Notes: a model not told the origin generated them from the letters alone. Numbered from the stretch's first letter, positions 462 to 64,000 are shown. The stretch is DNA of 64,000 nucleotides from an uncultured Oscillospiraceae bacterium (GCA_934615645.1 CAKTTR010000001.1:15475-79474); one strand, 5' to 3'. Program-made: numbers and translations.

Positions 462-544
462 TTAAATTATGTAATCTGCGTTTTAAGCTGAGATTATAGC
501 TACGCCAAGCCGCCTCCCGGCGGTGGATTTAAGGAGTGAATGTC

Positions 545-2782: not shown

Positions 2783-2797
2783 TGGGAGGTGCGTATC

Positions 2798-4825
2798 ATG
2801 GCTGAAATCAAAATTATCATCAATGGCAAAGAATGCACCGGGACTGCCGGGCAGACGATCTTGCAGATCGCCGCGCAGAACGGGATCGAGATTCCCAACC
2901 TGTGTGAAAACGGCCAGCTGAAGCATTACGCCGGCTGCGGCCTGTGCGTCGTCGAGGCGGAGGGCTGCCCGAAGCTGCTGCGCGCCTGTTCCACGATTCC
3001 TAAGGACGGCCAGGTCATTATGACCGATTCGCCCCGGGCGGCGCAGTCGCGGAAGATCACCATGGAACTGCTGATGAGCGACCATGTGGGCGACTGCAAG
3101 GGCCCGTGTATGCTCAACTGCCCCGCTGGGACGGAATGTCAGGCCTATGTCAAGCAGATCGCCCTGGGCAATGACCGGGAAGCCGTGCGGATCATCAAGG
3201 AGAAGATCCCCATGCCCTCCTCCATCGGGCGGGTTTGTCCCCATCCGTGTGAGACGGCTTGCCGCAGAAAGTATGTCGAGCAGCCGATCTCCATCGCATA
3301 TCTGAAATATTTCGCAGCCGACCGCGTCCGCGCGGCTGGCGGCTATCAGCCGGAGGTCAAACCGGCCACGGGCAAAAAAGTCGGCGTCATCGGCGGCGGT
3401 CCTGGTGGCCTGGCAGCGGCTTATTACCTGGCCTGCAAGGGCCACGACGTGACGGTCGTGGACGCCATGCCCAAGATGGGCGGTATGCTGCGCTACGGCA
3501 TTCCGGAATACCGGCTGCCGAAGGCGATCGTGGACGAAGAGATCGCGGAGATCGCCGCGGTCGGCGTCAAGCTGCAGAACAATGTCCGCATCGGCAAGGA
3601 TATTTCCTTTGACGATTTCCGGAAGCAGTACGATGCGACCATCGTTGCCATCGGCGCTTGGAAGAGCACCGGTGTGCGCTGCCCCGGCGAAGAGCTGGAG
3701 GGTGTACTGGGCGGCATCGATTTCCTGCGGGGCGTCGCCATGGGCCAGGCGCCGGAGATCGGCAAGCGGGTCGCCATTGTCGGCGGCGGCAACACGGCCA
3801 TGGATGCCTGCCGGACAGCAGTGCGCCTGGGCGCGGAGAATGTCTATGTCATCTACCGCCGGACAGAAGCAGAAATGCCGGCGGAAGCCATCGAGATCGA
3901 AGAAGCTCGGGAAGAGGGCGTCACCTTCAAATTCCTGACGAACCCCGCTGAGATCCTCGGCGAGAACGGCAAGGTCAAGGCGGTCAAGCTCCAGGTCATG
4001 GAGCTGGGCGAGCCGGATGCCTCCGGCCGCCGTGCGCCGGTGCCGGTAGAAGGCAAATTTGAGATCCTGGATGTGGACAGCGTCATCGCTGCCATCGGCC
4101 AGAAGGTCAACCCTGTGGGTTTCGAGGCCCTGGAGTGCAACAGCCGCGGCATCATCGCTGCCGACGAAGCGACCTACCGTACCAGCGTCGAGGGCGTGTT
4201 CGGCATCGGCGATGCGACGAACAAGGGCGCGTCTATCGCCATTGCCGCCATCGGCGAAGGCGACCGCTGCGCAGAAGTGGTCGACTCCTATTTGAATGGG
4301 AACCTCGTCGGCTATCGTAAGCCGTATGTCTCGGAGCGCCAGGTCAGCGAGAAGGACTTTGCCGATCGGGAGAAGATCGCCCGGATCCAGATGCCGGTCC
4401 GCCCCGCCGAGGAGCGGAAGCATGACTTTAAGGAGATCAACCTGGGCTTTGCCGAGGATGCAGCCCGGGCGGAGGCGAAGCGCTGCCTGGAGTGCGGCTG
4501 CTTCGATTACGGCGAATGCCGCCTGATCAAATTTGCCAACCGCTCCCCCATCGACCCGCAGCGGCTCATGGGCAAGAACCATCCTGCTTATACCGAGCAG
4601 CGCCTGGCGATCATCGAGCGCAACCAGGGCAAGTGCATCCTGTGCAACCAGTGCGTCCGGGTCTGCGACGAGGTCGTCGGTAAGGGCCTGCTGGGCCTGG
4701 TGGGCCGCGGCTTCAACACGGTCATCAAGCCGGAATTCCAGAGCGAAGAGACGATCAAGATCTGTGCGTCCTGCCGCAAGTGTGCAGAAAACTGCCCCAC
4801 CGGCGCGCTGAAGATCCTCGATTAG
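2798..4825 (+). CDS. Fe-S + GltD/NfnB-like FAD/NAD(P)H oxidoreductase subunit (StnC-like)
   Basis: N-terminal 2Fe-2S ferredoxin-like CGLCVVE, His-ligated cluster motif HVGDCKGPCMLNCP, two Rossmann motifs VGVIGGGPGGLAAAYYL and VAIVGGGNTAMD (GltD-like), C-terminal CILCNQCVRVCDE and CASCRKCAENCP. GGGAGG RBS lies 8 nt before ATG 2798. No H-cluster or molybdopterin motifs. Confidence 0.88.
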   Translation: MAEIKIIINGKECTGTAGQTILQIAAQNGIEIPNLCENGQLKHYAGCGLCVVEAEGCPKLLRACSTIPKDGQVIMTDSPRAAQSRKITMELLMSDHVGDCKGPCMLNCPAGTECQAYVKQIALGNDREAVRIIKEKIPMPSSIGRVCPHPCETACRRKYVEQPISIAYLKYFAADRVRAAGGYQPEVKPATGKKVGVIGGGPGGLAAAYYLACKGHDVTVVDAMPKMGGMLRYGIPEYRLPKAIVDEEIAEIAAVGVKLQNNVRIGKDISFDDFRKQYDATIVAIGAWKSTGVRCPGEELEGVLGGIDFLRGVAMGQAPEIGKRVAIVGGGNTAMDACRTAVRLGAENVYVIYRRTEAEMPAEAIEIEEAREEGVTFKFLTNPAEILGENGKVKAVKLQVMELGEPDASGRRAPVPVEGKFEILDVDSVIAAIGQKVNPVGFEALECNSRGIIAADEATYRTSVEGVFGIGDATNKGASIAIAAIGEGDRCAEVVDSYLNGNLVGYRKPYVSERQVSEKDFADREKIARIQMPVRPAEERKHDFKEINLGFAEDAARAEAKRCLECGCFDYGECRLIKFANRSPIDPQRLMGKNHPAYTEQRLAIIERNQGKCILCNQCVRVCDEVVGKGLLGLVGRGFNTVIKPEFQSEETIKICASCRKCAENCPTGALKILD

Positions 4826-4854
4826 GAGATCAAAAACCCTGAAAAATGAATCGT

Positions 4855-4891
4855 AAAAGGCATGGCCGTTCCAAAACGGCCATGCCTTTTC
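4855..4891 (+). terminator. intrinsic terminator after the flavoprotein operon
   Basis: GGCATGGCCGTT / AACGGCCATGCC 12-bp stem, CCAA loop, TTTT tail. Confidence 0.8.
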
Positions 4892-4911
4892 GTCTGTATA
4901 ATCTATAAAAG

Positions 4912-4955
4912 CGGCCATACCGGGCGGAGTACCGGTATGGCCGTCTATTTTTTTG
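4912..4955. terminator. second hairpin terminator between convergent genes (serves hemW and/or backs up the + operon)
   Basis: CGGCCATACCGG / CCGGTATGGCCG 12-bp stem; T-run on + side (TCTATTTTTTT), A-run on the other. Confidence 0.65.
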
Positions 4956-6172: not shown

Positions 6173-6204
6173 GCGTTGTTCTTCCTTTCGCGATGGATGT
6201 GGGC

Positions 6205-8019
6205 TTAATCGTCCATTTTCAGCACGGCCATAAAGGCCTCGCTGGGGACGGAGACGGTGCCAAAGCTGCGCATCCGTTTTTTGCCCTCCTTCTGCTTTTC
6301 CAGCAGCTTCTTCTTCCGGGTAACGTCACCGCCGTAGCACTTGGCCAGGACGTCCTTGCGGAGGGCTTTGATGGTCTCTCGGGCGATGATCTTGCCGCCC
6401 ACGGCGGCCTGCACCGGGATCTCAAACATCTGGCGGGGGATGTTCTCCTTCAGCTTTTCGCAGATCTTCCGGGCCCGGGCGTAGGCGCTGTCGGCAAAGA
6501 GGATGAAGGACAGCGCGTCGATGACATCGCCATTGAGCAGAATATCCAGCTTGACCAGCTTGCTGGGCCGGTAGCCGTAGAGCTCATAGTCCAGGGAGCC
6601 ATAGCCCCGGGTGCGGGATTTGAGGGAGTCGAAGAAATCGTAGATGATCTCGTTGAGGGGCATGAGATAGTGCAGCTCAACGCGGCTCTGGTCAAGATAG
6701 GTCATATCCTGGTACTCACCCCGGCGCTGCTGGCACAGCTCCATGATATTGCCGACGTACTCCGGCGGCGTGATGATGCTGGCTTTGACAAACGGCTCCT
6801 GCGCCTCCTGGATCTCCGCCGGATCGGGGTAGTTCAGCGGCGTGTAGACCTTGACGGTCGTGCCGTCGGTCTTCGTTACGCGATAGACGACGTTCGGGGC
6901 TGTCGTGATCAGGTCGAGGTTAAACTCTCGCTCCAGGCGCTCCATGATGATCTCCATATGGAGCAGCCCCAAAAAGCCGCAGCGGAAGCCGAAGCCCAGG
7001 GCGATGGAATTTTCCTGCTCATAGGTCATGGAGGCGTCGTTCAGCTTCAGCTTTTCCAGCGCGTCCCGCAGGTCGTCGTATTTGGAGCCGTCGGCGGGGT
7101 AGACGCCGGAGAAGACCATGGGCTGGACGGTTTTGTAGCCGGGCAGCGCTTCCGCCGCCGGGTTTTCCAGGCCCGTGACGGTATCGCCGACCCGGGTGTC
7201 GGAGATCGTTTTGATGGAAGCGGTCAGATAGCCGACCTCACCGGCACCGAGCTCCGGCGCGGCGATCATGCCCCGGGGGCTGAGATAGCCGACCTCGACG
7301 ATCTTATAGACTGCGCCGGTGCCCATCATCCGAACCTCCATGCCCGGCCGCATCGTGCCGTTCATGACGCGCAGATAGACGACGACGCCCCGGTAGGAGT
7401 CGTACTGGCTGTCAAAGATCAGCGCCTGCAGCGGCGCAGCCGGGTCGCCCTGGGGGGCAGGGACGCCATGCACGATCATTTCCAGCACAGCGTGGATATT
7501 GATCCCATTTTTGGCGGAGATTTCCGGCGCGTCCATGGCGGGGATGCCGATGATATCCTCTACCTCTTGTTTGACCTCCTGGGGCCGGGCAGCGGGCAGG
7601 TCAATCTTGTTGATGACCGGCAGGACCTCCAGGTCGTTGTCGATGGCCAGATACGTGTTGGCCAGCGTCTGGGCCTCGACGCCCTGGGAGGCGTCCACGA
7701 CAAGGACCGCGCCCTCGCAGGCGGTCAGGCTCCGGGAGACCTCATAGTTGAAGTCCACATGGCCCGGCGTGTCGATCAGGTTCAGAATATACGTTTCGCC
7801 ATCGTCTGCCTGGTACTGCAGGCGGACGGCGCGGGCTTTGATCGTGATGCCGCGCTCCCGCTCCAGGTCCATGGAGTCCAGGATTTGGTCCTCCATTTCC
7901 CGCTTGTCAATGGTATTGCACTCCTCCAGCAGGCGGTCCGCTAGGGTGGATTTGCCGTGGTCAATATGGGCAATGATCGAAAAATTTCTGATTTTTGCGC
8001 GATCTGTCAAGTGGTTCAC
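6205..8019 (-). CDS. lepA: translation elongation factor 4
   Basis: [23 protein letters not shown]1 motif, DTPGHVDF, full-length LepA C-terminal domain. GTG start at 8019; TTG at 8010 is an alternative. Confidence 0.95.
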
Positions 8020-45186: not shown

Positions 45187-45397
45187 TCATGGAAATCTAA
45201 AAAGATCGGATGCACAGACCATACAGTATTAGAATACTCCAATTTTTGATATAAGTAAAACAGAAAAAAGTTATATTTGCGATTATAATTACTAATACAT
45301 TTGCGGCATAGAAAAATCGCCTGCTCTTTCTGCTATTTTAAGCCCCGGCGCGCCGGTTTGTCAACGTTTATTCGCTGGGAAAGTCATACTTTTCCGC

Positions 45398-45426
45398 TTT
45401 ACAAACCGGTCGAAACTTGGTATAAT
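45398..45426 (+). promoter_or_regulatory. promoter of the SLH/DUF4430 gene pair
   Basis: TTTACA 45398-45403, 17 nt, TGgTATAAT (TATAAT 45421-45426); followed by a GGATGCGG/CCGCATCC leader hairpin. Confidence 0.6.
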
Positions 45427-45510
45427 CCAGGTATCCGAAACAGGCGAGAATGCCGGGGATGCGGGCGTTTTCCGCATCCGGCGGAAAAATTTGAACCGGA
45501 GGAAATAATC

Positions 45511-47679
45511 ATGAAGAAAAGATTTCTGGCGTTGGTGCTGGTACTGGCACTGTGCGCGGGCCTGCTGGTCATGCCAGTCAGTGCGGCAGAGCCGGAGGCG
45601 GTGGCCTATTTGACCATCAGCGTCGCGGGCGAGCTGCAGCTCACGCGCTACCCGGTCCCGCTGACGGACGAAAATGAGAACGGCAAATTGGATATTGACG
45701 ACGTGCTGCAGGTCGGCCATGCGCTTTACGGCGAGGGCATCTACAGCTATGCTTCGGCCAAGGGTGACTACGGCCTGAGCATCACAAAGCTTTGGAACGA
45801 TACCAGCGGCGCGTTCGGCTACTGTGTGAATACCACCGTTCCGATGAGCCTCGAAGAGGAAGTCAAGGCGGGCGACGATGTCTACGCCTATGTCTACCAG
45901 GATAAGACGGGCTATACCGATGCATTTTCTTATTTCAATGAACGGCATATCTCGGTCACAGCCGGTGATACCGTTACGCTGACGCTCTCTAAGCTTGGCT
46001 ACGGTGAAAACTGGGAGACGATCAGCACGCCCATCACCAACGCGGCGATCACCATCGACGGCGAAGAGACGGACTATGTGACGGATGAAAACGGCAAGGT
46101 CACGATGAAGCTCAACGCGCCTGGCCTGTATGTGATCTCCGCCAACGCGACAGGGACGATTCTGGTGCCGCCGGTCACGACGGCCCGGGTCAAGGCAACC
46201 TGGACGAAGGACTGGCGCAACAGTGCAATGACCGCGCTGCAGGGCACGGCAGCCATCAGCCTGGCCAAGCAGGGCGAGGATATCAGTGCTTGGGATATCA
46301 TTGGCCTGTACGGCGCGGGCGTTCCGGTGCCGGAGGCATATCTTGCGGATTATCTGGAAGGGCTCTACGATGCTCTGGTCAGCAGCAATGGCCAGCTCTC
46401 GGCCAGCCAGTACACGGCCTACTCCCGCAGCATTCTGGCGCTGGCGGCCGTTGGCGAGGACCCGGCCAACTTTGCAGGCTATGATCTGCTCAAATGGCTG
46501 GAGGATTATGATAAGACCACGAAGCAGGGCGTGACCGGCGCGGCGTATGCGCTGCTGGCCCTGGACTGCGCTGGCGACACGTTCCAGAGCAGCCAGCGGG
46601 AAGCCTATGTGCAGTACATCCTGGATGCCCAGCGCAAGGACGGCGGCTGGGACCTGCGGGGCGAGAGCGCCGCGGCGGCTGACGCCGATGTGACGGCTAT
46701 CTGCCTGCAGGCACTGGCGGCCTACGCCGGGGACCCGGCGGTCCGTCCGGCAGTGAACAAGGGCATTGACTGCCTGTCTGCTCTGCAGCAGAGCGACGGC
46801 GGCTTTAAGAGCTACGGCACGGCCAACTGCGAGAGCAGCGCTATGGTGCTGCTGGCCATGTGCCAGCTGGGCATCGGCCTGGACGACGCCCGCTTTGTCA
46901 AGGGCGAAAACTCGGTGCTGGACGCCATGCTGCGCTTCCGCAATGCGGACGGCAGCTTCAGCCACGAGGCCGGGAAGGGCGCCAATACCCTGGCGACGAT
47001 GCAGGCCCAGATGGCACTGGCCTCCCTGCTGCGCTGCGCCGACGGGATGAGCGGCATTTACGATATGACCAACGGCTACGGCGAATTCCCCTTCACGGAC
47101 GTGGCCTTCAACACCTGGTATTTTGAGGCGGTTCGCTATACGAACCAGGCGGGCCTGTTGGTCGGCACAACGGAGACGACCTTTGGCCCCAATGTCCCGC
47201 TGACCCGCGGCATGCTCGTGACGATCCTGTGGAGAATGATGGGCCGTCCGGCGGCACAGCAGAATGTCACGGCGTATTATTCGGATGTCAACGCCAAGAT
47301 GTACTACGCTGAGCCCATCGCCTGGGCGACGGAGCTGGAGATTGCAGCCGGTATGGGCGGCGGCAAATTCTGCCCGGAGGAAAAAGTCACCCGGGAGCAG
47401 TTGGCGTGCTATCTTTACCGCTATCAGAAGCTGGCGCTGGGCGGGGATGTCTCCGCGTCGGAGAATCTGCAGGGCTGGAGCGATTACAGCCAGATTTCTT
47501 CCTGGAGTAAAGAAGCTTTGGCCTGGGCCACGGCAGAAGGTCTGCTGGTCGGCAGCGGCGGTAAGCTGGACCCCAAGGGCAGCGCGACCCGCGCCCAAGT
47601 GGCCAGCGTGCTGATGCGCTTTGACCGGAGCATTGGCGATGCTTGGGAGAATGAGCTTCTCGGCACCTATTTCAAATAA
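45511..47679 (+). CDS. secreted S-layer-homology protein: DUF4430-like beta domains + prenyltransferase/terpene-cyclase-like alpha/alpha toroid + 3 SLH repeats
   Basis: Signal peptide MKKRFLALVLVLALCAGLLVMPVSAAEP. Toroid repeats (QRKDGGWDL, QQSDGGFKSYG, RNADGSFSHE). C-terminal SLH motifs (FTDVAFNTWYFEAVRY.., YSDVNAKMYYAEPIAWA.., WSDYSQISSWSKEALAWA..). Start ATG 45511 behind GGAGGAAA. Confidence 0.8.
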   Translation: MKKRFLALVLVLALCAGLLVMPVSAAEPEAVAYLTISVAGELQLTRYPVPLTDENENGKLDIDDVLQVGHALYGEGIYSYASAKGDYGLSITKLWNDTSGAFGYCVNTTVPMSLEEEVKAGDDVYAYVYQDKTGYTDAFSYFNERHISVTAGDTVTLTLSKLGYGENWETISTPITNAAITIDGEETDYVTDENGKVTMKLNAPGLYVISANATGTILVPPVTTARVKATWTKDWRNSAMTALQGTAAISLAKQGEDISAWDIIGLYGAGVPVPEAYLADYLEGLYDALVSSNGQLSASQYTAYSRSILALAAVGEDPANFAGYDLLKWLEDYDKTTKQGVTGAAYALLALDCAGDTFQSSQREAYVQYILDAQRKDGGWDLRGESAAAADADVTAICLQALAAYAGDPAVRPAVNKGIDCLSALQQSDGGFKSYGTANCESSAMVLLAMCQLGIGLDDARFVKGENSVLDAMLRFRNADGSFSHEAGKGANTLATMQAQMALASLLRCADGMSGIYDMTNGYGEFPFTDVAFNTWYFEAVRYTNQAGLLVGTTETTFGPNVPLTRGMLVTILWRMMGRPAAQQNVTAYYSDVNAKMYYAEPIAWATELEIAAGMGGGKFCPEEKVTREQLACYLYRYQKLALGGDVSASENLQGWSDYSQISSWSKEALAWATAEGLLVGSGGKLDPKGSATRAQVASVLMRFDRSIGDAWENELLGTYFK

Positions 47680-50288: not shown

Positions 50289-50371
50289 ATGCTCACCTTC
50301 CCTTCCCCGCTGTTAGTATGACCGGCGGGGCGGGAAATATGGCTGGAATCATGCGGCAGTGAAAAAGGTAT

Positions 50372-50399
50372 TTGGCATTGGGAAATTTTGTGTTATAAT
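50372..50399 (+). promoter_or_regulatory. promoter of the OMPDC-like operon
   Basis: TTGGCA 50372-50377, 16 nt, TATAAT 50394-50399. The about 95-nt leader has stems GGCGGGACGC/GCGTTCCGCC (50418-50440) and GCGCC/GGCGC (50441-50453). Confidence 0.55.
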
Positions 50400-50499
50400 A
50401 GCCGCAAAGAGGTGTAAGGCGGGACGCAAAGCGTTCCGCCGCGCCAGCGGCGCGATGCGTTTTAAAGCGATTCTGCGGGTGTGGAAGGGAGTTTTTACG

Positions 50500-51426
50500 A
50501 TGTCAATCGATGCATTGCAGGCGAAGATCCGAAAACTGAAGAATCCCTCGATGATCGGGCTGGACCCGACGGTGGAGCTGCTGCCGCCGCATCTGCTGGA
50601 GGAGGCGTATCGCGCCCATGGTCAGAGCCTGGAGGCATTGGCCGCGGCGTATGAGACATTCTGCGGCGAAATTTTGCAGGCGCTGCAGGGCCTTGTCCCG
50701 GCGGTGAAGGTGCAGAGCTATTGCTTTGACGCCCTGGGCAGCTGCGGCATCGCGGCGATGCAGCGTTTGCTGCGCAAGGCGCAGCGCCTGGGCTTTTATG
50801 TGATGCTGGACGCCAATTACAGCAGCGTCGGGCATATTTCCCAGCTCTATGCCGCCGCCGTCTTCGGCGGCCTGCGGACGCCGGACGGCGCTTGTCTGCA
50901 ACCCTATGCCTGCGACGGGCTGAGCATCAACCCGTATCTTGGCAGCGACAGTGTCAAGGCGTTTTTGCCCTATTGCAAGCAGCAGGGGAAGAATCTGTTC
51001 CTCTGTGTCAAGACCTCGAATAAATCCTCCCGGGAGGTGCAGGACCTCATCTCCGGCAACCGGATGGTCTACAGCGCGGTGGCAGATCTTGCCATGCGTT
51101 GGAGCATCGACCTGTTCGGCAAAAACGGCTACAGCGAGCTGATCGCCGTGGTCGGCGCGCCGTATCCGCAGGTGCTGCGGGCGCTGCGGCAGCAGTATGA
51201 CCGGCTGTTTTTCCTGGTGCCGGGCTACGGCGCCCAGGGTGGGACGGCGAAGCATGTCAGCGCGGCGTTCACGGCGGCAGGCCGGGGCGCGATCGTCAGC
51301 GCGTCGCGCAGCGTGATCGGCGCCTGGCAGAAGACCGGCAGCGACGGCCGCGACTGGGCCCAGTGCGCGCAGGACGCGGCGTGCAAAATGCGGGATGATT
51401 TGGCAAAATATGTGACGGTGATTTAA
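50500..51426 (+). CDS. type-2 orotidine-5'-phosphate-decarboxylase-fold protein with degenerate catalytic DxKxxD motif
   Basis: Colinear with type-2 PyrF (IGLDP, AVKVQ, phosphate gripper LVPGYGAQGG), but the DAKRGDIG catalytic block reads DANYSSVG (Lys and second Asp absent). Start ATG 50500 behind GGAAGGGAG. Confidence 0.75.
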   Translation: MSIDALQAKIRKLKNPSMIGLDPTVELLPPHLLEEAYRAHGQSLEALAAAYETFCGEILQALQGLVPAVKVQSYCFDALGSCGIAAMQRLLRKAQRLGFYVMLDANYSSVGHISQLYAAAVFGGLRTPDGACLQPYACDGLSINPYLGSDSVKAFLPYCKQQGKNLFLCVKTSNKSSREVQDLISGNRMVYSAVADLAMRWSIDLFGKNGYSELIAVVGAPYPQVLRALRQQYDRLFFLVPGYGAQGGTAKHVSAAFTAAGRGAIVSASRSVIGAWQKTGSDGRDWAQCAQDAACKMRDDLAKYVTVI

Positions 51427-52568
51427 TGATGACGACGATCTACTTCATCCGCCATGCAGAGGCGGAGGGGAACTTATACCGGCGGCTGCACGGCCAGCAT
51501 GACACGCTGCTCACCCCCGCCGGAGTGCGGCAGGCGGAGGCGCTGCGCCGCCGCTTCGCCGGAGTGCGGCTGCATGCCTGCTACGCCAGCGATCTGAACC
51601 GGGCAGTGCAGACGGCGCTGCCGGTCTGTAAGGACCATCGGCTGCGGCTGCGCCGGGAGCCGGCATTCCGGGAGGTATGCTTCGGCACGTGGGAGGACCA
51701 GAGCTTTGGCACGCTGGAGCATCTCTACCCCGAGCAGATGCGCGTGTTCCGCCAGAATATGTGGGCCTGGCAGGCGCCTGGAAGCGAGACGCTGGAGCAG
51801 GCCACCGGGCGCTTTATCGAGGCGCTTCGGGCGGTCGCGGAGCGCCATGCGGGTCAGACGGTGGCGATTTTTACCCACGGCGCGATCCTGCGGGCTGTGC
51901 AGGCGGAGCTGTTTTTTACGCGGCAGACGATGAACCGGGCGGGCCGGTGTGATAACACCGGCGTGAGCCGGGTGCAGTACGAGGGCGGCCGGTTTACGCT
52001 GGATTATCTCAATGACAACGCACATCTGGACCTAGCCCTTTCGACGCAGAACCGGCTGGACAGCCTGTGCCAGCGCAGCGCTTCTCTGGGGGAGGACTAT
52101 AACCTCTGGTTTGAGTTAGCCCAGGACGGCGGCGCGCTGTATATGGACCTGCGCCGCCAAAACTGGGTGCAGCGCTGCGGCACGCTGACCTGGACGGACG
52201 CGGCGGCGGTCGAGGCGCAGATGCGCGCCATCCTGGCGCGGGCACCGAATACGCTGTACTATGCCAGGCAGGGGCAGGCGTTGGTCGGCGCGCTGCTGCT
52301 GGAGCCGGAGCAGGAGCAGGATTACGGCGTGATCCGTTATCTTGGCGTGCTGCCGGAACGGAAGTACCGCGGTTTTGCTGTGCAGCTGCTGGGCCAGGCT
52401 GTCAGCCATTGCCGCAGCCAGGGCAAGAGTAAGATCCGCTGTACGATCCCCGACGGCGATTATACGACGGTCCACTTCTTTGAAAAGTACGGCTTTCGGC
52501 CCCGCAAACAGGCGGGGGGCGAGCGGTGCTATGAGCTGTCCATTGCTCTGCCGCGGCAGCCGGGGTGA
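51426..52568 (+). CDS. histidine phosphatase (PGAM-like) fused to a GNAT acetyltransferase domain
   Basis: IYFIRHAEAEGN RHG motif, FTHGAILRA second His; C-terminal GNAT (VIRYLGVLPERKYRGFAVQLLGQAV..FFEKYGF). TAATG overlap with the preceding gene. Confidence 0.8.
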   Translation: MMTTIYFIRHAEAEGNLYRRLHGQHDTLLTPAGVRQAEALRRRFAGVRLHACYASDLNRAVQTALPVCKDHRLRLRREPAFREVCFGTWEDQSFGTLEHLYPEQMRVFRQNMWAWQAPGSETLEQATGRFIEALRAVAERHAGQTVAIFTHGAILRAVQAELFFTRQTMNRAGRCDNTGVSRVQYEGGRFTLDYLNDNAHLDLALSTQNRLDSLCQRSASLGEDYNLWFELAQDGGALYMDLRRQNWVQRCGTLTWTDAAAVEAQMRAILARAPNTLYYARQGQALVGALLLEPEQEQDYGVIRYLGVLPERKYRGFAVQLLGQAVSHCRSQGKSKIRCTIPDGDYTTVHFFEKYGFRPRKQAGGERCYELSIALPRQPG

Positions 52569-53348: not shown

Positions 53349-55439
53349 TCAGCGTTTTACATTTTTGCAAAACTGCATCAGGATCGTCGCGACCTGCTCC
53401 CGGGTCGCGCTGCCCTGGGGATCCAGGTAGGTCTGGCCGCCGCGCAGTGTGCCGGAGATCAGGCCGAGGGAGACGGCGTCCGCCAGCGCGTTGCGCGCCC
53501 AGGCAGAAACGCGGCCCGCGTCGGGATAACGGCTCAAATCCGCAGGCGTCCAGGTGCGCGAGACGCCCAGGACCTTTTGCGCGTAGCCCATCAGGATTAC
53601 CGCGATCTGCTCCCGTGTTACCGGAACATTGGGTGCAAAGGTCGTCGCGCTCATCCCGGAGACGACGCCGGTCTGGTATGCCCAAAGCACGGCGTTTTTG
53701 TACCAGTCCTGCGTCAGATCTGTAAACGGCGCTGCGCCGCTGACGCTTGGCGAGCCGCTCAGGCTGTAGAGAATTTGGACGATCTGCGCCCGGGTCGTGG
53801 CGGTCTGCGGAGCAAACCGGCTGCCGCCGACGCCGTACATCAGGCCGTTGGAGACGCAGTAGTCGATCCCGGCATGGGCCCAGTTATTAGCGCCCGGGAC
53901 ATCGGTGAATCCGGCGCTTGGGCAGGTGAGCTGCGCAATGGTCTCCGTCCGCGTCGCGCTGCAGCGGGTGCAGGTATAGCGCTTGACGCCGGGGGCGGTT
54001 TCCGTTGCGGGGGTCGTGACCACTCCGGCGTCCCAGTTGTGGTCCAGCGGGTTGGTGTAATCGCTGCGGTAGGAGTCGCCGCAGGTGCAGGTGTATGTCG
54101 TATACCCCTGTTCTGTGCAGGTCGGCGAGGTGACGGTGCTTGTGTACTGGTGGATATGCTCTGCGGTGACCGTGAAGTAGACCCTGCTGGTCTCCGTCGA
54201 GTAGTCCTTAAATTTCGTATTCTTTGCCAGCACTGTGACATAGTACCGGCCCGGCTTTGAGATTGTGCAGGTGTCACTCCTGGCGGTCGACTCGAAATTG
54301 GCAACGAGGGAGTCGTCCTCCGAGCGAATCCGCATCAGATACCATCTCTCATCCATCACGCCCTGGAGGGGGCTTTCGGTCCACTGTACGGTAAAGCGCG
54401 TCTTGGCACTTACCACAGACGGAATGGTGATCTGCACTGCGGCGGGCCTTGCAGGTTTGACATAATTGATGGTGTACAGGCTGAACAGCTGGGCCTTGCT
54501 GTTGTCACTGGTGTGCGCCCAGTTGCCGTACAGCTGCATCTGCGTCCCGGCGGCAGAGGAGCCGTCTTTGCAATCGAGCACGAGCCAGTTGCCAGCCGTG
54601 ACCGAGTCCTTGGCGATCAGTTTGAAAATACCGTTGTAGCTTTTGATGTACCATTGGAAGCGCGTCGCCCGCTGGCCAGCAAAGGGGGCGGTCGTCACCT
54701 TCGCCTGCGAGGCGCAATTGCCTTCGTAGGTGAGGTATTCCTCGTTGAACATATTCTGGACATAATAGCTGCCGTCAGCTTGGCGGATAAAACGCCAGAT
54801 CTGAGCTGGGTCATTGGCATTGTTGGTGCGGGAGATCGTCACGTTCCAGCTATTGGAGTCATAATAATTCGTCCCGATATGCTTCCAGCTATCTGACCGA
54901 ATGAGCAGGCGGTAGACGTCTGCGCCGATGTTGTCAAAGGTCGGTGCCGGGGTCACGCTGGAAAAGTCCGGGCGGATCACGCCCCAGTAGGTGTTGTCAA
55001 ATTTGTCATATCTCACATTTGTGACATTGACGACATATTGCCGGTCGGCATAATTTTGATGCCAGGTGCTGTAATCCGATTCGTAGATTGCGACATGGCC
55101 GGCTTCATTTTTGACGCTCGGATTGTAGACTAGGATATCGCCCTTCTGGGGCTGGACGCCCTGGAGCCGCTGCCAGCCGGACGGGAGTGCATTCGTGCGG
55201 TACTCCTTGGCGTAACCGCCAGGGGAGGTCTGGCCGAGGTATTTGTAGTAAAAGCAGATCAGGTCGACACATTGGGCGCCATATGCGCCGTCGTAATCCA
55301 GGGGCTGCCCGGCTTTGCTTCGGACCCAGTTGATCGCGTCATCGGCGGTTTTGCCGCCTGTAGAGGCCGAGGCTGCCGTCGGCAGCAGGGAGAGGGCCAT
55401 CAGCACAGCCAGCGCCAGGCTAAGTACACGTTTTTTCAT
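53349..55439 (-). CDS. secreted cell-wall hydrolase: CHAP amidase/peptidase + ricin-type lectin-like + Ig/Fn3-like + Cys-rich module + 3 SLH repeats
   Basis: Signal peptide MKKRVLSLALAVLMALSLLPTAASA; CHAP (GAQCVDLICFYYKY..GHVAIYES); QIWRF..YYVQN beta-trefoil-like repeats; C-x-C-rich HIHQYTS..CTCGDSY..YTCTRC; C-terminal SLH (FTDVPGANNWAHAGIDY.., FTDLTQDWYKNAVLWA.., YPDAGRVSAWARNALA..). Confidence 0.8.
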   Translation of the reverse strand: MKKRVLSLALAVLMALSLLPTAASASTGGKTADDAINWVRSKAGQPLDYDGAYGAQCVDLICFYYKYLGQTSPGGYAKEYRTNALPSGWQRLQGVQPQKGDILVYNPSVKNEAGHVAIYESDYSTWHQNYADRQYVVNVTNVRYDKFDNTYWGVIRPDFSSVTPAPTFDNIGADVYRLLIRSDSWKHIGTNYYDSNSWNVTISRTNNANDPAQIWRFIRQADGSYYVQNMFNEEYLTYEGNCASQAKVTTAPFAGQRATRFQWYIKSYNGIFKLIAKDSVTAGNWLVLDCKDGSSAAGTQMQLYGNWAHTSDNSKAQLFSLYTINYVKPARPAAVQITIPSVVSAKTRFTVQWTESPLQGVMDERWYLMRIRSEDDSLVANFESTARSDTCTISKPGRYYVTVLAKNTKFKDYSTETSRVYFTVTAEHIHQYTSTVTSPTCTEQGYTTYTCTCGDSYRSDYTNPLDHNWDAGVVTTPATETAPGVKRYTCTRCSATRTETIAQLTCPSAGFTDVPGANNWAHAGIDYCVSNGLMYGVGGSRFAPQTATTRAQIVQILYSLSGSPSVSGAAPFTDLTQDWYKNAVLWAYQTGVVSGMSATTFAPNVPVTREQIAVILMGYAQKVLGVSRTWTPADLSRYPDAGRVSAWARNALADAVSLGLISGTLRGGQTYLDPQGSATREQVATILMQFCKNVKR

Positions 55440-55522
55440 ACGCCATCTTCTTTCTTCAGGGATTTTGCAGGGATCGCAGCGTCCGGGCGTATCACATGCC
55501 AGGCTGCTAGATTCTACAGATG

Positions 55523-55551
55523 AGAATACACACAAACCGCATCTTTGTCAA
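55523..55551 (-). promoter_or_regulatory. promoter of the CHAP/SLH gene
   Basis: On the - strand TTGACA (55546-55551), 17 nt, TATTCT (55523-55528). Confidence 0.5.
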
Positions 55552-59345: not shown

Positions 59346-59485
59346 GCCGAGCGGTAGCGCCGGGGCGAAAAACGTGGTAAAATAATTTAATAAGGCGCTG
59401 CCCAAGCGGCGTGCATATGGAAGAAATCGGGGTACGCCCCGGAGGATGATAGAGATCAAAAGAGTTTACCCGGGGAGGATATGGG

Positions 59486-62400
59486 ATGAAGCAACCCGTC
59501 AGCAGCCTCCGGCAGTGGATGCTGGAGCAGTATGCGCCGCAATTTCATTTGGAGAAGAAAACGCTGCTGAAGCAGCTGGATCAGGTGGGCTTTTACGCAG
59601 AGCGCTGCCTGCCACCGGTGGGCCAGCGGGTCAACTGCCAGCTGGTGCTCGATACCTGCAGGCTGTATTTGCAGACCCTGTGCCCGGAGCCGCCGGAGGG
59701 GTGGCTGGCGTTTTTATATGAGGAGATCTGCCAGAAAATGTTCCCGGAGACGGGCCATAGCCCGATGACGCCGGGGCAGCGGCAGGCGGCGGCGTTTTAT
59801 CTGGGCCTGCTGCGCTATGCCATCAGCCGGGAGAATTGCCCCTTTGACCCCTTAACGGATATCGACGCTGCGACGGAGGCGGAGCTGCAGCAAAGCCGCA
59901 TCGCTAAGGAATACGCCCGCTTCTGGAAGGCGGTGGAGGACGATTATTTTGTCGAGCTCATGCGCATCGGGCGGGAGATCATGCCCTTTGACCCGGCATC
60001 GCATACCATTGGCGTGCATCATGTGGCGGTGCATATGGCCCGGCAGGCGCTGCAGGCGGGGATCCCGGTGGACATTGCCCTGTGCAGCGCCGCGGCGCTG
60101 AGCCACGATATCGGCAAATTCGGCTGCCGTGGACGGGATGCCCGGCGGATCCCCTATCTGCACTATTACTTCACCTGGCAGTGGCTGGAGGGGCACGGTG
60201 TGCCGACGATTGCCAACATCGCGGCCAATCACTCGACCTGGGACCTGGAATTTGAGAACCTGCCCGGCGAATCGCTACTCCTGATCTACGCGGACTTCCG
60301 GGTCCGGGGCAACCGGGATGCCGAGGGACGGGAGCGGGTGCAGATCTTTTCCCTGGAGGCAGCCTACCAGGAAATCTTCCGCAAGCTGGCGGATATGACG
60401 CCGGAAAAGCAGCTGCGCTACCGGACGGTCTATGCCAAGCTGCATGATTTTGAGCAGTACCTGCTGAGCCACGGAGTGGACCCGGACCCGGTGCAGCGCG
60501 GCGCTTGTACGGCGTGCACGCCGAAAGCGGCTCTGCTGCCTCGGCGGGAGATCCCGCGGCAGATCTGCAATCTGACCTTCCACAACAATATCCGCCTGAT
60601 GCGCCAGATTACCCACGACGCATCATTCGAGCAGCTGCTGGAGCAGGCGCGCAATGAGAAAAATCTGCAGAGCGTGCGGACGTATCTGCACCTTTATTCA
60701 GAATATCACACGTATCTGACCCGGGCGCAGAAGCAAAAGCTGCTGGCGTTTTTATATGAGCTGCTGATGCACCATGACGGCGATGTCCGGCGGCGGGCGG
60801 CCCGGATGATGGGCCAGGTGCTGACAAACAGCGGGCCGAAATACCGCAAGGAGCTGCCGGCCGGTGTGCCGCCCCAGGCGGCGGCGCCGAATCTGCTCTC
60901 CTTTTTAAATGAGTCGGTCCAGATCTGGGCCAGCTATGCCGAGCAGTGCCTGCATCCGGATCAAAAGATCGCGCCGAAGCATGCGCTGCGGATCTCCAAC
61001 TCTCTGAAGATCGTGGCCGAGAGTATTTTTCGTCATCTGAGCCGCGAAAAATGGCCGGAGTATTTGGAGGTGCTGCTGGCCCAGGTGCGCAGGGACCTGC
61101 CCCAGGATCAGTTCGTGCTGCTAGACACGCTGAACCACGTGCCGGACGCCGCGTTTACGCCGCAGCAGGGCCAGGCGCTGCTGGTGCAGTTCGCCTCGCA
61201 TTTATCCGGCGCTGCGGAGCGGGAGCAGATTGCCGCGCTGCGCTTTTTCCGCAAGCTGCTGGCGATTGGCGACGAGGCGCTGCAGGCGGAGGTCCGCCGC
61301 GTCGCCCAGGCGCTGGAGCCGGGGGAGTCTTACGCCGTGGGCTACGAGCGGTCGGTCCTGCTGCGGGGCGCGGGGGAGACAGCCTCCTTGCGCAACGCAG
61401 AGCGGCAGCATCTTTACCTGAGCAATATGAAAATGGCCGTCCACTGGAGCGTGAAAATATCGCACATTGATATGCTGTGCGAAAATGTCACGGCGCATCC
61501 GGAGATGGCGTTCCACACGGCAATGCATTTGAGCAATCTGCTGTGCGTCAGCGAGCATCTGCCGGTGCGGGATTACGCGGGGGAGCATCTGGTCGCGCTC
61601 TGCGCCAAGCTCCCGGCGGACCAGCAGAATGAGCTGATGATCGACCTCATCCGCGAGCTGGAGACAGGGCGGGAGGAGGTCTCCCGTTATATCCCGAAAT
61701 TCCTGGGCCGGATGCTGTGCCAGCTGCCGGACTCTGCCTTTGCCGAGTGCCTGCAGTCCCTGGCGGAGCTGGTCCATTCGGACAATACCCTGGCTGCCAT
61801 GGCGGCGCTGACGACGCTGGCGGTGGTGCTGGCGAATCAGGCCGGAAGCGAAGCGGTGACGGAGCAGGTCTTTGGCCTGCTGCTGACAGGTGTGGCGCAT
61901 TTTGACGATATGATTCATCAGCGGGCCCTCTCGCTGATCTGCCGCCAGGTCTTTGACAATCCGGTTCTGCCGCTTTCCGTCCGGCAGCGGTATTTTATCC
62001 GCATCTGCAAAAAATTCCTGACGCTGCTGGAGGAGCCGCACCCGGGGCAGCTGAATTTCTTCACCTGTGCGGCGGCGCTGAACCATTTGTATCGCTTCCT
62101 GGTGCAGTGCCAGGTGCATCTGCCGGAGCCGGTGCTGCCGCCGGAGCGGCCCATCGCTTTCTTCCCCGGGACATTTGACCCCTTCTCCTCCGGCCATAAG
62201 CGCATCGTGCAGGAGATCTGCGCCAAGCAGTTTGATGTCTATCTGGCGGTGGATGAATTCTCCTGGAGCAAGCAGACGCTGGCCAAGCTGTTGCGGCGGC
62301 AGATCGCCAGCATCTCCGTGGCGGACCAGCTGGATGTCTATCTCTTCCCGGATGATATCCCCATCAACATCGCCATGGCGGAGGATCTGACCAGGCTGCG

Positions 62401-64000
62401 GCAGCTGCTGCCGAACCGGGCGGTCTATCTGGCCGTGGGCAGCGATGTGGTCCGCAACGCCTCGGCGTACCGGCCCGGCGCGACCGGCGGCGCGGCGGAC
62501 TTTGACCATATCGTCTTCTCCCGGGAGGAGACAGGCCAGCTGCCGCCGCTGGAGACGGTGATCCGGGGCAAGCTGGAGGTACTGCAGCTGCCGCCATTCT
62601 TTGACAGCGTCTCCTCCAGCCGGATCCGGGAGTATGTGGATAAGAACCTGGATATCTCCATGCTGGTGGACCCGATCGTGCAGAATTTTATCTACCGGCG
62701 GGGCCTGTATCTGCGGACGCTGCAATATAAAATGGTATTGCAGCCCCATAAGCTGTATTTTGAAAATGCCCAGGAGATCTTGCCGGAGATCCCGCAGAAG
62801 CTGGCGGAGAAGCTGGCCGGATGGCCGGGCGTGGCCAGCTGCGTGCTGCGCTCCCGGGCCACCGGCGGCCTCTGGGGCTGGGCCTGCGGACGGACGGTCC
62901 AGAGCTATCAGCTGCTGGATGTTTTGCAGGATGCCCAGGCGGCGTCCTGCGTCCGGGAGCGGGTCTCAGGGAATATCCTGCTGATCGACGGGGTCGGCGC
63001 TGTCGCGCCGGGGCAGAGCGTGGAGCGGCAGGTCCTCAATGAGCTGCTGGCCCGGGCCCAGGAGCGGAGCATCACCTATGCCATCTGCCGCTGCCCGGCT
63101 GCCGGGCCGCTGGAGCAGGCACTGCGGGAGCTGGGCTTTGCCCCGACGCCGGAGCAGCCGTCGGTCTGGGTGGTGGATATGCGCCGCCCGGTGGTGCTGA
63201 TCCTGGACGCGCTGCAGAAGCTGAAATCCCCCCACCGGGAGAACCCGAAGGTCATCCGGGCGGTGGAGAAGGCGCGGCGGGCGCTGCGGCTCTCCTTTGC
63301 CCAGATGTTCCCGGGGGATCTGATCTTGAGCTTTGATGTCGAGCTGCTGAACCAGGCGCTGCGCAGCCGGGTCCAGCGCTGCAACGGCGTGGCGGATGTG
63401 CCGCCTGGGGAGCGCCGCCTGGGCAGCAAGATGTGCGTGCCCTTCGGCAAAATCCTGGCCAATGACCTGGTGCCGAACACGGTGACAAAGCGGCTGGAGG
63501 TGGAAAAGGTATTCCTGCCCAATATCCGGGGGCTGGAGATCAAGGAATACCCCGGGTATTCGACGCTGGTCAACCAGGTCCGGACGATCAAGTCCTTCCG
63601 GCGGCCCATGATTTTGGTGGACGATCTGATGCACAACGGCTATCGGATGGAGTATCTGACGCCGCTGCTGCGGCAGGAGCAGGTGGAGATCGACCGGCTG
63701 ATCGTCGGGATCATGTCCGGCCGGGGCAAGGACCGGATGCGGCTGCAGGATATCGAGACGGAGTGCGAGTATTTCATCCCCGCCATGCGCTATTGGCAGA
63801 CGGAGAGCCTGCTCTACCCCTTCATCGGCGGCGACAGCGTTCTGACGAGCCGCAAGACGGAGATGCTGCCGACGATCAATCTGATCCTGCCGTATAAATA
63901 TCCGCATTTCTTCAGCGGCGTCCCCAAGCGGGCAATCTACGCCCTTTCGGAGACGGTGCTGGCCAGCACGCAGGAGATTCTGCGGGTGCTGGAAAAGGAG
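59486..64000 (+). CDS. giant multidomain protein (partial, >=1505 aa; no stop in window): HD phosphohydrolase + HEAT-like repeats + NadD/CoaD-type nucleotidyltransferase + GNAT-like + degenerate type-I PRTase-like domain
   Basis: Hand translation from ATG 59486 (GGGGAGGA RBS) is open to base 64000. Motifs: HTIGVHHVAVH..LSHDIGKFG..LIYADFRV (HD); HHDGDVRRRAARMMGQVL (HEAT); IAFFPGTFDPFSSGHKRIV and VSSSRIREYV ((H/T)xGH + ISSTxxR-like); RRPMILVDDLMHNGYRM (PRPP-loop-like). The long - strand ORFs here are antisense shadows. Confidence 0.8.
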   Translation, partial: MKQPVSSLRQWMLEQYAPQFHLEKKTLLKQLDQVGFYAERCLPPVGQRVNCQLVLDTCRLYLQTLCPEPPEGWLAFLYEEICQKMFPETGHSPMTPGQRQAAAFYLGLLRYAISRENCPFDPLTDIDAATEAELQQSRIAKEYARFWKAVEDDYFVELMRIGREIMPFDPASHTIGVHHVAVHMARQALQAGIPVDIALCSAAALSHDIGKFGCRGRDARRIPYLHYYFTWQWLEGHGVPTIANIAANHSTWDLEFENLPGESLLLIYADFRVRGNRDAEGRERVQIFSLEAAYQEIFRKLADMTPEKQLRYRTVYAKLHDFEQYLLSHGVDPDPVQRGACTACTPKAALLPRREIPRQICNLTFHNNIRLMRQITHDASFEQLLEQARNEKNLQSVRTYLHLYSEYHTYLTRAQKQKLLAFLYELLMHHDGDVRRRAARMMGQVLTNSGPKYRKELPAGVPPQAAAPNLLSFLNESVQIWASYAEQCLHPDQKIAPKHALRISNSLKIVAESIFRHLSREKWPEYLEVLLAQVRRDLPQDQFVLLDTLNHVPDAAFTPQQGQALLVQFASHLSGAAEREQIAALRFFRKLLAIGDEALQAEVRRVAQALEPGESYAVGYERSVLLRGAGETASLRNAERQHLYLSNMKMAVHWSVKISHIDMLCENVTAHPEMAFHTAMHLSNLLCVSEHLPVRDYAGEHLVALCAKLPADQQNELMIDLIRELETGREEVSRYIPKFLGRMLCQLPDSAFAECLQSLAELVHSDNTLAAMAALTTLAVVLANQAGSEAVTEQVFGLLLTGVAHFDDMIHQRALSLICRQVFDNPVLPLSVRQRYFIRICKKFLTLLEEPHPGQLNFFTCAAALNHLYRFLVQCQVHLPEPVLPPERPIAFFPGTFDPFSSGHKRIVQEICAKQFDVYLAVDEFSWSKQTLAKLLRRQIASISVADQLDVYLFPDDIPINIAMAEDLTRLRQLLPNRAVYLAVGSDVVRNASAYRPGATGGAADFDHIVFSREETGQLPPLETVIRGKLEVLQLPPFFDSVSSSRIREYVDKNLDISMLVDPIVQNFIYRRGLYLRTLQYKMVLQPHKLYFENAQEILPEIPQKLAEKLAGWPGVASCVLRSRATGGLWGWACGRTVQSYQLLDVLQDAQAASCVRERVSGNILLIDGVGAVAPGQSVERQVLNELLARAQERSITYAICRCPAAGPLEQALRELGFAPTPEQPSVWVVDMRRPVVLILDALQKLKSPHRENPKVIRAVEKARRALRLSFAQMFPGDLILSFDVELLNQALRSRVQRCNGVADVPPGERRLGSKMCVPFGKILANDLVPNTVTKRLEVEKVFLPNIRGLEIKEYPGYSTLVNQVRTIKSFRRPMILVDDLMHNGYRMEYLTPLLRQEQVEIDRLIVGIMSGRGKDRMRLQDIETECEYFIPAMRYWQTESLLYPFIGGDSVLTSRKTEMLPTINLILPYKYPHFFSGVPKRAIYALSETVLASTQEILRVLEKE

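Follow-up and report, generated by a model that had tools for sequence, protein, structure and literature searches.

The 3′ end of a 64,000-nucleotide (nt) stretch of DNA from an uncultured Oscillospiraceae bacterium (GCA_934615645.1 CAKTTR010000001.1:15475-79474), hereafter the window, is occupied by the greater part of a very long plus-strand gene, which we call gene A. Its product, of about 1,564 amino acids (aa), comprises five modules: an HD domain, a HEAT-like solenoid, a NadD-like nucleotidyltransferase (NTase), a GNAT-like domain and a phosphoribosyltransferase (PRTase)-like domain. Three of these, the HD, NTase and PRTase-like modules, place conserved and apparently intact nucleotide-handling sites on a single chain. 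Gene A is also the first gene of a three-gene operon of Clostridia, A-B-C, the other two members of which would lie beyond the window. The features of gene A are as follows.

59486–64000, plus strand: gene A, 1,505 stop-free codons of about 1,564, truncated by the window end
59472–59479, plus strand: ribosome-binding site GGGGAGGA, read from the sequence, 6 nt 5′ of the ATG
59486–59980, plus strand: N-terminal helical region, aa 1–165, all-helical by AlphaFold, variable
59981–60520, plus strand: HD phosphohydrolase domain of HDIG type, aa ∼166–345, above the Pfam HD cut-off
60521–62125, plus strand: HEAT/ARM-like alpha-solenoid, aa ∼346–880, from AlphaFold and Foldseek
62126–62725, plus strand: NadD-like HIGH-type nucleotidyltransferase, aa ∼881–1080, from Pfam CTP_transf_like, TIGR00482 and a profile search of the PDB
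62726–63220, plus strand: GNAT-like alpha/beta domain, aa ∼1081–1245, from AlphaFold and Foldseek
63221–63385, plus strand: helical segment linking the GNAT-like domain to the PRTase-like domain, aa ∼1246–1300, from the secondary structure of the model
63386–63925, plus strand: type I PRTase-like domain, aa ∼1301–1480, from Foldseek, sub-cut-off Pribosyltran matches and an alignment of the HPRT loop
63926–64000, plus strand: start of a C-terminal helical cap, aa 1481–1505, continuing to ∼1564 past the window, from the model of the homologue P0001

An earlier description of this DNA, made without database searches (the sequence-only reading), had proposed an uninterrupted open reading frame (ORF) from 59486 to the last base, preceded by a good ribosome-binding site, and both the 1,505 codons and GGGGAGGA agree with it. 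The nearest upstream in-frame stop ends at 59452, and the ATG at 59486 is the sole in-frame start codon downstream of that stop. As the same description supposed, the frame is missing from the ORF list solely because it runs past the window end. A complete homologue in the protein databases, P0001, is 98% identical to the gene A product and 1,564 aa long, so that about 59 codons of gene A should lie beyond the window. Codon differences between gene A and the P0001 locus comprise 163 synonymous and 28 non-synonymous changes (∼6:1), and the GC content of gene A at the three codon positions (GC1/GC2/GC3) is 0.66/0.39/0.83; the gene is under strong purifying selection. A protein of the same length (1,502–1,637 aa), at 96–100% coverage, is present in more than 100 listed homologues from independent assemblies, and all 80 of the 80 GTDB loci compared encode a continuous protein. 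This contradicts the splitting into ordinary genes, by frameshifts or stops, which had been entertained at the outset. Gene A is a genuine, functional gene.

Two minus-strand ORFs in the ORF list, 61202–62749 and 62966–63907, lie opposite gene A. These had been taken for antisense shadows, and in a genome of 60–63% GC this is how they are best read. A parallel case at the other end of the window, a 1,365-aa minus-strand ORF at 821–4918 with no Pfam match, lies over two genuine plus-strand genes, so shadow ORFs of this kind are routine here:

536–2782, plus strand: thioredoxin-like [2Fe-2S] ferredoxin domain fused to NuoF-type flavin mononucleotide (FMN) and Fe-S domains
2789–4825, plus strand: GltD-like Fe-S/FAD (flavin adenine dinucleotide) oxidoreductase

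The gene A product was modeled in two parts with AlphaFold2. Residues 1–885 of the window protein give an all-helical model with a predicted local distance difference test (pLDDT) of 89.5 and a predicted template modeling score (pTM) of 0.88, and residues 1080–1564 of P0001 give a pLDDT of 93.5 and a pTM of 0.92. The latter model ends in the helical cap, with helices at aa 1481–1510 and 1543–1562. Searching these models with Foldseek recovers HEAT/ARM, GNAT and PRTase folds, as the sequence-only reading had anticipated. Profile searches of Pfam and NCBIfam sustain that reading in part: the HD and NTase modules score above their Pfam cut-offs, and the HEAT, GNAT and PRTase modules do not. The first two assignments are thus backed by sequence matches, and the HEAT-like, GNAT-like and PRTase-like assignments by predicted fold only. 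None of the modules can be classed as NadD, CoaD or YqeK, or as a canonical GNAT or PRTase.

Across 78 aligned sequences of 36–98% identity, and counting a position as invariant at ≥98%, there are 39 invariant positions in the HD domain, 36 in the HEAT-like solenoid, 44 in the NTase, 36 in the PRTase-like domain and 8 in the weakly conserved GNAT-like domain. The N-terminal 165 aa have none, and match no Pfam or NCBIfam family, in keeping with the earlier remark that they carry no motif.

The HD module matches Pfam HD (PF01966) at 22.5 bits against a cut-off of 22 in the whole protein (aa 172–251), and at 26.5 bits when the HD region is searched alone. Among 15 diverged family members, from which we also derived the HD, NTase and PRTase-like sub-profiles used below, 10 match PF01966 at E ≤0.01 (best 4e-7). 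The complete H..HD..D motif set recognized from the sequence is confirmed by invariant residues H173, H207-D208, H226, H249 and D270, with HN replacing HD in one genome. Two-metal HD enzymes typically show this H...HD...H...H...D pattern, and the six conserved ligands suggest such a site in the gene A domain. In NCBIfam the domain matches the HD part of DVU_1551 (E 8e-7) and HDIG (E 1e-3).

We find no sign that this domain is of the YqeK type, as the sequence-only reading had assumed. No YqeK model is among the NCBIfam matches of the gene A product at E ≤1, and no PDB entry named YqeK is matched by the HD sub-profile at E ≤5, in a copy of the PDB in which entries under that name are unconfirmed. 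The same sub-profile finds no HD-GYP structure in the PDB, and yields weak matches only, around the H...HD segment (1xx7, E 0.3). The HD fold is not visible in the PDB Foldseek search of the N-terminal model, where HEAT matches occupy the top 50, and a viral structure library returned repeat proteins only for this model (best E 0.011).

Downstream of the HD domain, AlphaFold predicts ∼25 regular helices at aa 353–878 with a pLDDT of ∼90. Foldseek relates them, at probability 1.0 and E 1e-6 to 2e-4, to the PP2A A subunit, karyopherins, CAND1 and designed ARM proteins. A HEAT-like repeat region had been proposed here; its fold stands, with the length revised from ∼450 to ∼525 aa. Sequence matches are fainter: HEAT_2 (PF13646) reaches 18.2 bits (E 0.003), below its cut-off of 27.7, CAND2 matches the region at E 0.0014, and one homologue, P0098, bears a precomputed PF02985 hit. 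HEAT solenoids typically serve as protein-docking platforms.

The NTase module scores 22.1 bits against the Pfam CTP_transf_like (PF01467) cut-off of 21 (aa 892–1049). Both signatures named in the sequence-only reading are present, GTFDPFSSGH at aa 895–904 and SSSRIRE at aa 1043–1049, spaced ∼140 aa apart rather than the ∼165 aa given there. In the main clade, PGTFDPFSxGH, with its (S/T)xGH motif, and SSxxIR are invariant. The assignment of this module as NadD-like rather than CoaD-like is upheld by several searches. The NadD equivalog TIGR00482 aligns over positions 2–194 of 194, whereas the CoaD equivalog TIGR01510 aligns over residues 1–50 of 155 only, at 23.9 bits against a cut-off of 103.3. 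In the PDB, the NTase sub-profile matches the nicotinate mononucleotide (NaMN) adenylyltransferase (NaMNAT) 5llt over positions 4–196 of 203 (E 4e-9), and other NadD structures are likewise matched end to end. The full-length matches are exclusively adenylyltransferases of NaMN or nicotinamide mononucleotide (NMN), whereas phosphopantetheine adenylyltransferase (PPAT) structures match over the first ∼65 residues only.

These similarities are distant. The score is 28.6 bits for TIGR00482 (cut-off 112.45) and 28.4 bits for the PRK00071 NadD model (cut-off 150), and the remaining NadD equivalogs are likewise far under their cut-offs. In addition, an invariant DEFSWSK segment follows strand 2 and aligns with a non-matching segment of 5llt, so the acceptor need not be NaMN. 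The acceptor substrate of this NTase probably differs from NaMN.

The alpha/beta segment that follows had been described as GNAT-like. Its fold bears this out: NatD, GCN5, AtaT, NatF and agmatine N-acetyltransferase are found by Foldseek in the PDB at probability 1.0 and E 1.5e-4 to 7e-4, with TM-scores to the target of 0.41–0.53. The signatures of an acetyltransferase do not accompany it. No Pfam GNAT family (PF00583 and relatives) matches the gene A product at E ≤1, and the acetyl-CoA loop, Q/R-x-x-G-x-G/A between strand 4 and helix 3, is represented by no conserved Gly-x-Gly when the consensus is read against the secondary structure of the model. The GNAT-like fold more probably has a structural or binding role than an acetyltransferase activity.

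For the PRTase-like domain, the closest PDB neighbors in Foldseek are XPRT, UPRT, APRT, HGPRT, OPRT and PurR (E 3e-5 to 7e-4, probability 1.0), and the top ones include XPRT bound to guanosine tetraphosphate (ppGpp). Pfam Pribosyltran (PF00156) scores 13.8 bits against a cut-off of 26.3 and lies under its cut-off in every member. Sub-cut-off matches occur in 12 of the 15 diverged members, always at the phosphoribosyl pyrophosphate (PRPP) loop (best E 0.0013), and NCBIfam PRTase matches are faint (E ∼0.25). The loop itself, LVDDLMHNGYR at aa 1377–1387, aligns as vilvDDllHkGyR with vliiEDilEtGtT of HPRT. Its acidic pair D1379-D1380 is invariant, and TGxT is swapped for an invariant H1383...R1387 (H-x-G-x-R). 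This alignment bears out the VDD loop with NGYR in place of TGxT that was first picked out by eye. Other invariant residues of the domain are K1335, E1440-S1441 and G1448-G1449-D1450.

Gene A does not stand alone. In three diverged genomes it is followed by gene B (∼411 aa, no Pfam match) and then by gene C (∼355 aa, FMN_red); the stop and start codons of the successive genes overlap, and the outer flanks differ between the genomes. At one locus, L001, the two partners are:

L001:8451–9686, outside the window: gene B, similar to lactate dehydrogenase (LDH) and malate dehydrogenase (MDH), ∼411 aa
L001:9676–10746, outside the window: gene C, FMN_red with four conserved cysteines, ∼356 aa

Where the sequence extends ≥2.4 kb downstream of gene A (68 loci), B lies directly 3′ on the same strand in 65 and C likewise in 64. 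The A-B-C order spans Oscillospiraceae, Christensenellaceae, Lachnospiraceae, Peptococcaceae and Anaerovoracaceae. Among complete or cultured genomes, the operon occurs in Anaerovorax odorimutans DSM 5092, Hominibacterium faecale SF3, Faecousia intestinalis CLA-AA-H192 and Dysosmobacter sp. HCP28S3_G4. The sequence-only reading had imagined a self-contained machine, and the constancy of B and C argues otherwise; the survey of distribution and neighbors that it proposed reveals a wide spread in Clostridia and this operon, so the gene is neither rare nor self-contained. Three species (L020, L066 and L071) carry gene A with neither B nor C within 4 kb downstream. A Christensenellaceae metagenome-assembled genome, OY762290.1, holds two complete A-B-C operons (L026 and L043, at ∼12.7 kb and ∼3.59 Mb) with A proteins 89% identical, which points to recent duplication of the operon or to an assembly of mixed strains.

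No fourth conserved neighbor emerges when the flanking ORFs of 82 loci are all clustered. A glutamate dehydrogenase lies upstream in 11 of the 82, mostly on the opposite strand (L002:3134–5830, L061:2095–3528), an association that is weak and possibly lineage-specific. In the window, the upstream neighbors of gene A encode TrmO, a NAD (nicotinamide adenine dinucleotide)-dependent epimerase, an amidase and rubrerythrin, and these are not conserved partners. We found no second NadD-, HD- or PRTase-like gene and no copy of B or C elsewhere within the 64-kb window. Rfam searches of the 190-nt leader of gene A (E ≤1) and of 11 homologous loci place no riboswitch upstream of the gene, the sole matches at those loci being an unrelated lysine riboswitch, a T-box and tRNA; a scan of the leader for promoters and terminators gave nothing useful on the plus strand.

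The product of gene B is predicted to be a divergent NAD-binding dehydrogenase of the LDH/MDH type. Its profile matches L-LDH in the PDB (E 5e-7), and hhalign pairs it with a Geobacillus LDH sequence at a probability of 96% over 276 columns. The full LDH fold is retained along with GxGxxG, the NAD-ribose Asp, R203 (Arg109 of LDH), R277 (Arg171) and H298 (His195). It departs from L-LDH and MDH in three respects: Asp168 is replaced by an invariant Met, Asn140 by Asp, and the type found in the window lineage carries a 105-aa N-terminal extension. In the product of gene C, FMN_red occupies the C-terminal half (E 1.4e-17), behind an additional 160-aa N-terminal domain. Four invariant cysteines, C208, C211, C216 and C225, lie ∼45 residues into the FMN_red domain with the spacing CX2CX4CX8C. 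This resembles the compact cysteine motif of the iron-sulfur flavoprotein Isf, in which, however, the spacing is CX2CX2CX5-7C (PMC3164229).

A word-indexed search at E ≤1e-3 returns 6,240 clusters at 90% identity, the best 120 of which are all 1,502–1,637 aa long. Scanning one genome for each GTDB species with a pattern confirms relatives in at least 574 species. The best 80 of these are all Clostridia: Avoscillospira, Faecousia, Dysosmobacter and Oscillibacter among Oscillospiraceae, Blautia and Anaerotignum among Lachnospiraceae, Anaerovorax odorimutans DSM 5092 and Hominibacterium faecale among Anaerovoracaceae, together with Christensenellaceae and Peptococcaceae. Identity to the gene A product follows taxonomy, which suggests vertical inheritance of the family in Clostridia. 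Any impression of rarity given by the sequence-only reading is thus dispelled, and members were already in the databases. Their names there are all derived from domains: “nicotinate-nicotinamide nucleotide adenylyltransferase” (the name given to homologues by RefSeq and UniRef), “HD domain-containing protein,” “cytidyltransferase-related domain protein” and “hypothetical protein.” Full-text literature searches returned no characterized orthologue of, or paper on, the family, in line with the earlier remark that no characterized protein of this architecture was known to its author.

Searched exhaustively against 1.84 billion representatives, the GNAT-like and PRTase-like part retrieves only 302 proteins at E ≤1e-3, which indicates that this pair of domains is essentially confined to the family. 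The majority have the full architecture; a smaller number, 1,020–1,310 aa long and beginning with Met, align only from residues ∼340–410 or ∼640 of P0001, and so are without the N-terminal and HD modules. On metagenome contigs L085–L091 the shorter forms fall into two arrangements, types 2 and 3, beside that of the window:

Type 1 (window form): HD, HEAT, NTase, GNAT-like and PRTase-like modules, followed by B and C
Type 2 (2 loci): aligns to P0001 from ∼640, followed by LDH-like and FMN_red proteins 34–39% identical to B and C
Type 3 (4 loci): aligns to P0001 from ∼340–410, without B and C, with a coupled 860–895-aa PPDK_N (ATP-grasp) protein upstream

The type 2 relatives keep an intact NTase and the two redox partners in the absence of the HD domain. 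In three of the four type 3 proteins the His of HxGH is Asp, and in some full-length forms it is Gln and SSxxIR is also lost. As judged by crude regular expressions, the DDxx[H/D/N]xGxR loop of the PRTase-like domain is kept throughout. The constant core of the family is therefore the HEAT solenoid, the NTase fold and the GNAT-like and PRTase-like domains; the HD domain and the redox partners are lineage-specific. At both type 2 loci coaD lies two genes upstream, accompanied by a gene for a 161-aa coiled-coil protein (L087:4002–4963, L091:1–680). We dropped this as independent evidence, given how closely the organisms carrying these loci are related, and treat the link to coenzyme A as a hint only.

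The account that we favor, tentatively, is that gene A encodes a make-and-break enzyme for an adenylylated phosphoribosyl metabolite of the dinucleotide type, acting with two redox partners. In this scheme the PRTase-like domain would hold, and possibly form, a 5-phosphoribosyl compound. The NadD-like domain would transfer AMP from ATP onto one of its phosphates to yield a pyrophosphate of the dinucleotide type, and the HD domain, by analogy with NadD-YqeK fusions, would hydrolyze either this product or wrongly made analogues of it. The solenoid would dock B and C, which might take the non-adenine half of the molecule as a redox substrate or depend on the product as a cofactor. On the chain, the HD, NTase and PRTase-like sites are joined by the solenoid and the poorly conserved GNAT-like fold.

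Precedents exist for joining such activities. The HD domain fused to a mycoplasma NadD hydrolyzes nicotinate adenine dinucleotide (NaAD) and its C and U analogues NaCD and NaUD (PMC9426524), and the NadD-HD fusion of Mesomycoplasma ovipneumoniae hydrolyzes c-di-AMP and pApA (PMC12879401). Both of these NadD-YqeK fusions (JCVISYN3A_0380 and M. ovipneumoniae NadD) combine a HIGH-type NTase and an HD domain in one polypeptide, as gene A does. They are, however, only ∼360 aa long, with the NTase preceding the HD domain and no other modules. In gene A the HD domain is N-terminal and not YqeK-like, a 525-aa solenoid separates it from the NTase, the GNAT-like and PRTase-like domains follow, the NTase falls under the NadD cut-offs, and there are redox partners in the operon. 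GlnD, RelA/SpoT and the Escherichia coli CCA-adding enzyme also carry an HD hydrolase and a transferase on one chain. There, as proposed here, a synthetic and a hydrolytic site deal with one phospho-linked product; the transferase is of the pol-beta or RelA type rather than HIGH/NadD, and HEAT, GNAT-like and PRTase-like modules are lacking.

At the level of single domains, the NTase of gene A shares with NadD and CoaD the two signatures, (H/T/S)xGH and ISSTxxR, and aligns with NaMNAT over its full length, in contrast to its scores, far below the cut-offs, and to the DEFSWSK segment after strand 2. With type I PRTases and PurR the PRTase-like domain shares the fold, and the hydrophobic strand and acidic pair at the PRPP loop; it differs in having H-x-G-x-R for TGxT, in the position of the domain behind a GNAT-like fold and in the C-terminal helical cap.

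Several observations weigh against a make-and-break enzyme. The NTase falls far short of every equivalog cut-off (28.6 against 112 bits for NadD), and DEFSWSK may mean a substrate unrelated to nicotinate. No similarity to YqeK is detectable in the HD domain. The PRTase-like domain seems to be without a canonical 5-phosphate loop and could be a sensor, as in PurR. With the catalytic His of the NTase lost and the PRTase-like loop kept in some relatives, adenylyl transfer does not appear essential to every form of the family. Contact among A, B and C is something we infer from gene order only, and there is no riboswitch or other regulatory clue at gene A.

An alternative that we consider unlikely is a regulatory rather than a biosynthetic enzyme. 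In it the PRTase-like domain, perhaps along with the GNAT-like one, would be a catalytically silent sensor of PRPP, (p)ppGpp or a nucleotide, and the NTase and HD domains would attach a nucleotidyl group to, and remove it from, B or C docked on the solenoid, by the logic of GlnD and GlnE. The replaced phosphate loop and the presence of ppGpp-bound XPRT and PurR among the structural neighbors fit such a sensor. So do a HEAT docking platform with 36 invariant positions, translational coupling with B and C that suggests a complex, and a core that pairs with alternative enzymes by lineage (B and C, or PPDK_N). However, conservation of the PRTase-like domain matches that of the catalytic domains, and its polar invariant residues resemble those of an active site. 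To our knowledge, moreover, HIGH-type nucleotidyltransferases of the NadD/PPAT kind act on small molecules, not on proteins.

It is distinctly unlikely that gene A is simply a housekeeping NadD with accessory domains, the HD domain serving as YqeK and the PRTase-like domain supplying or sensing NaMN or PRPP. Such an enzyme would account for NaMN adenylyltransferases being the best full-length matches of the NTase, for the RefSeq and UniRef names, and for the existence of NadD-HD fusions. It is at odds with the low scores against TIGR00482 and the other NadD equivalogs, with the missing YqeK signal, with members in which the NTase motif is dead, and with conserved partners that are LDH-like and FMN_red proteins rather than NAD genes.

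A more far-reaching reading, which we regard as quite doubtful, makes A-B-C a compact pathway: it would lead to a cofactor or signal of the dinucleotide type, as yet undescribed, in anaerobic Clostridia of the gut. The LDH-like B would oxidize or reduce an organic acid, with electrons passing via the FMN_red protein C; the variant PRTase would phosphoribosylate the acid, the NadD-like domain would adenylylate it and the HD domain would turn the product over. This would mirror, with unrelated parts, the route to NaAD through NadB/NadX, NadA, NadC and NadD. The HD-less lineages with PPDK_N would then be variants that activate the same scaffold differently.

A role in phage defense or biological conflict, by depletion or modification of NAD or nucleotides, has very little in its favor. 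Defense systems do repeatedly use HD, PRTase-like and nucleotidyltransferase modules, and the HD domain has a faint similarity to Cas10 HD (E 0.026 to 0.21). PADLOC, however, gives no significant match (only Cas10, E 0.026, with no passing stretch), and the family occurs in at least 574 species, with identities that follow taxonomy and strong purifying selection. Housekeeping genes flank it, without any mobile-element context, and the viral structure library gave nothing. An artefact, be it several ordinary genes fused by faulty sequencing or assembly or a pseudogene in decay, has a negligible chance of being correct given same-length homologues in independent assemblies, continuity at 80 of 80 GTDB loci, the 163 synonymous against 28 non-synonymous differences and two multi-domain AlphaFold models with a pTM of ∼0.9. 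Both defense system and artefact are effectively excluded.

The novelty of gene A is one of arrangement: its component folds are all known, the family was already in the sequence databases, and no established idea is overturned. Hundreds of species of gut anaerobes (Oscillospiraceae, Lachnospiraceae, Christensenellaceae and relatives) nevertheless bear the cost of ∼4.7 kb of coding sequence for this protein, and its annotation as a nicotinate-nucleotide adenylyltransferase is probably an over-call. An operon of three nucleotide-handling sites and two redox proteins offers a testable entry into nucleotide and cofactor metabolism in commensals.

Elsewhere in the window, opposite-strand ORFs of ∼600 aa each overlap at 6193–7944 (plus strand, no Pfam match at E ≤1e-5) and 6205–8019 (minus strand). 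Two large cell-wall-anchored SLH-domain proteins are encoded at 53349–55535 (minus strand) and 45301–47679 (plus strand), one with CHAP and ricin-B lectin domains and the other with an alpha-alpha toroid like those of prenyltransferases and terpene cyclases. The plus-strand gene at 51426–52568 encodes a 380-aa protein in which a His_Phos_1 histidine phosphatase is fused to a C-terminal GNAT domain, an unusual pairing, and adjoins a gene of the orotidine monophosphate (OMP) decarboxylase family at 50359–51426.

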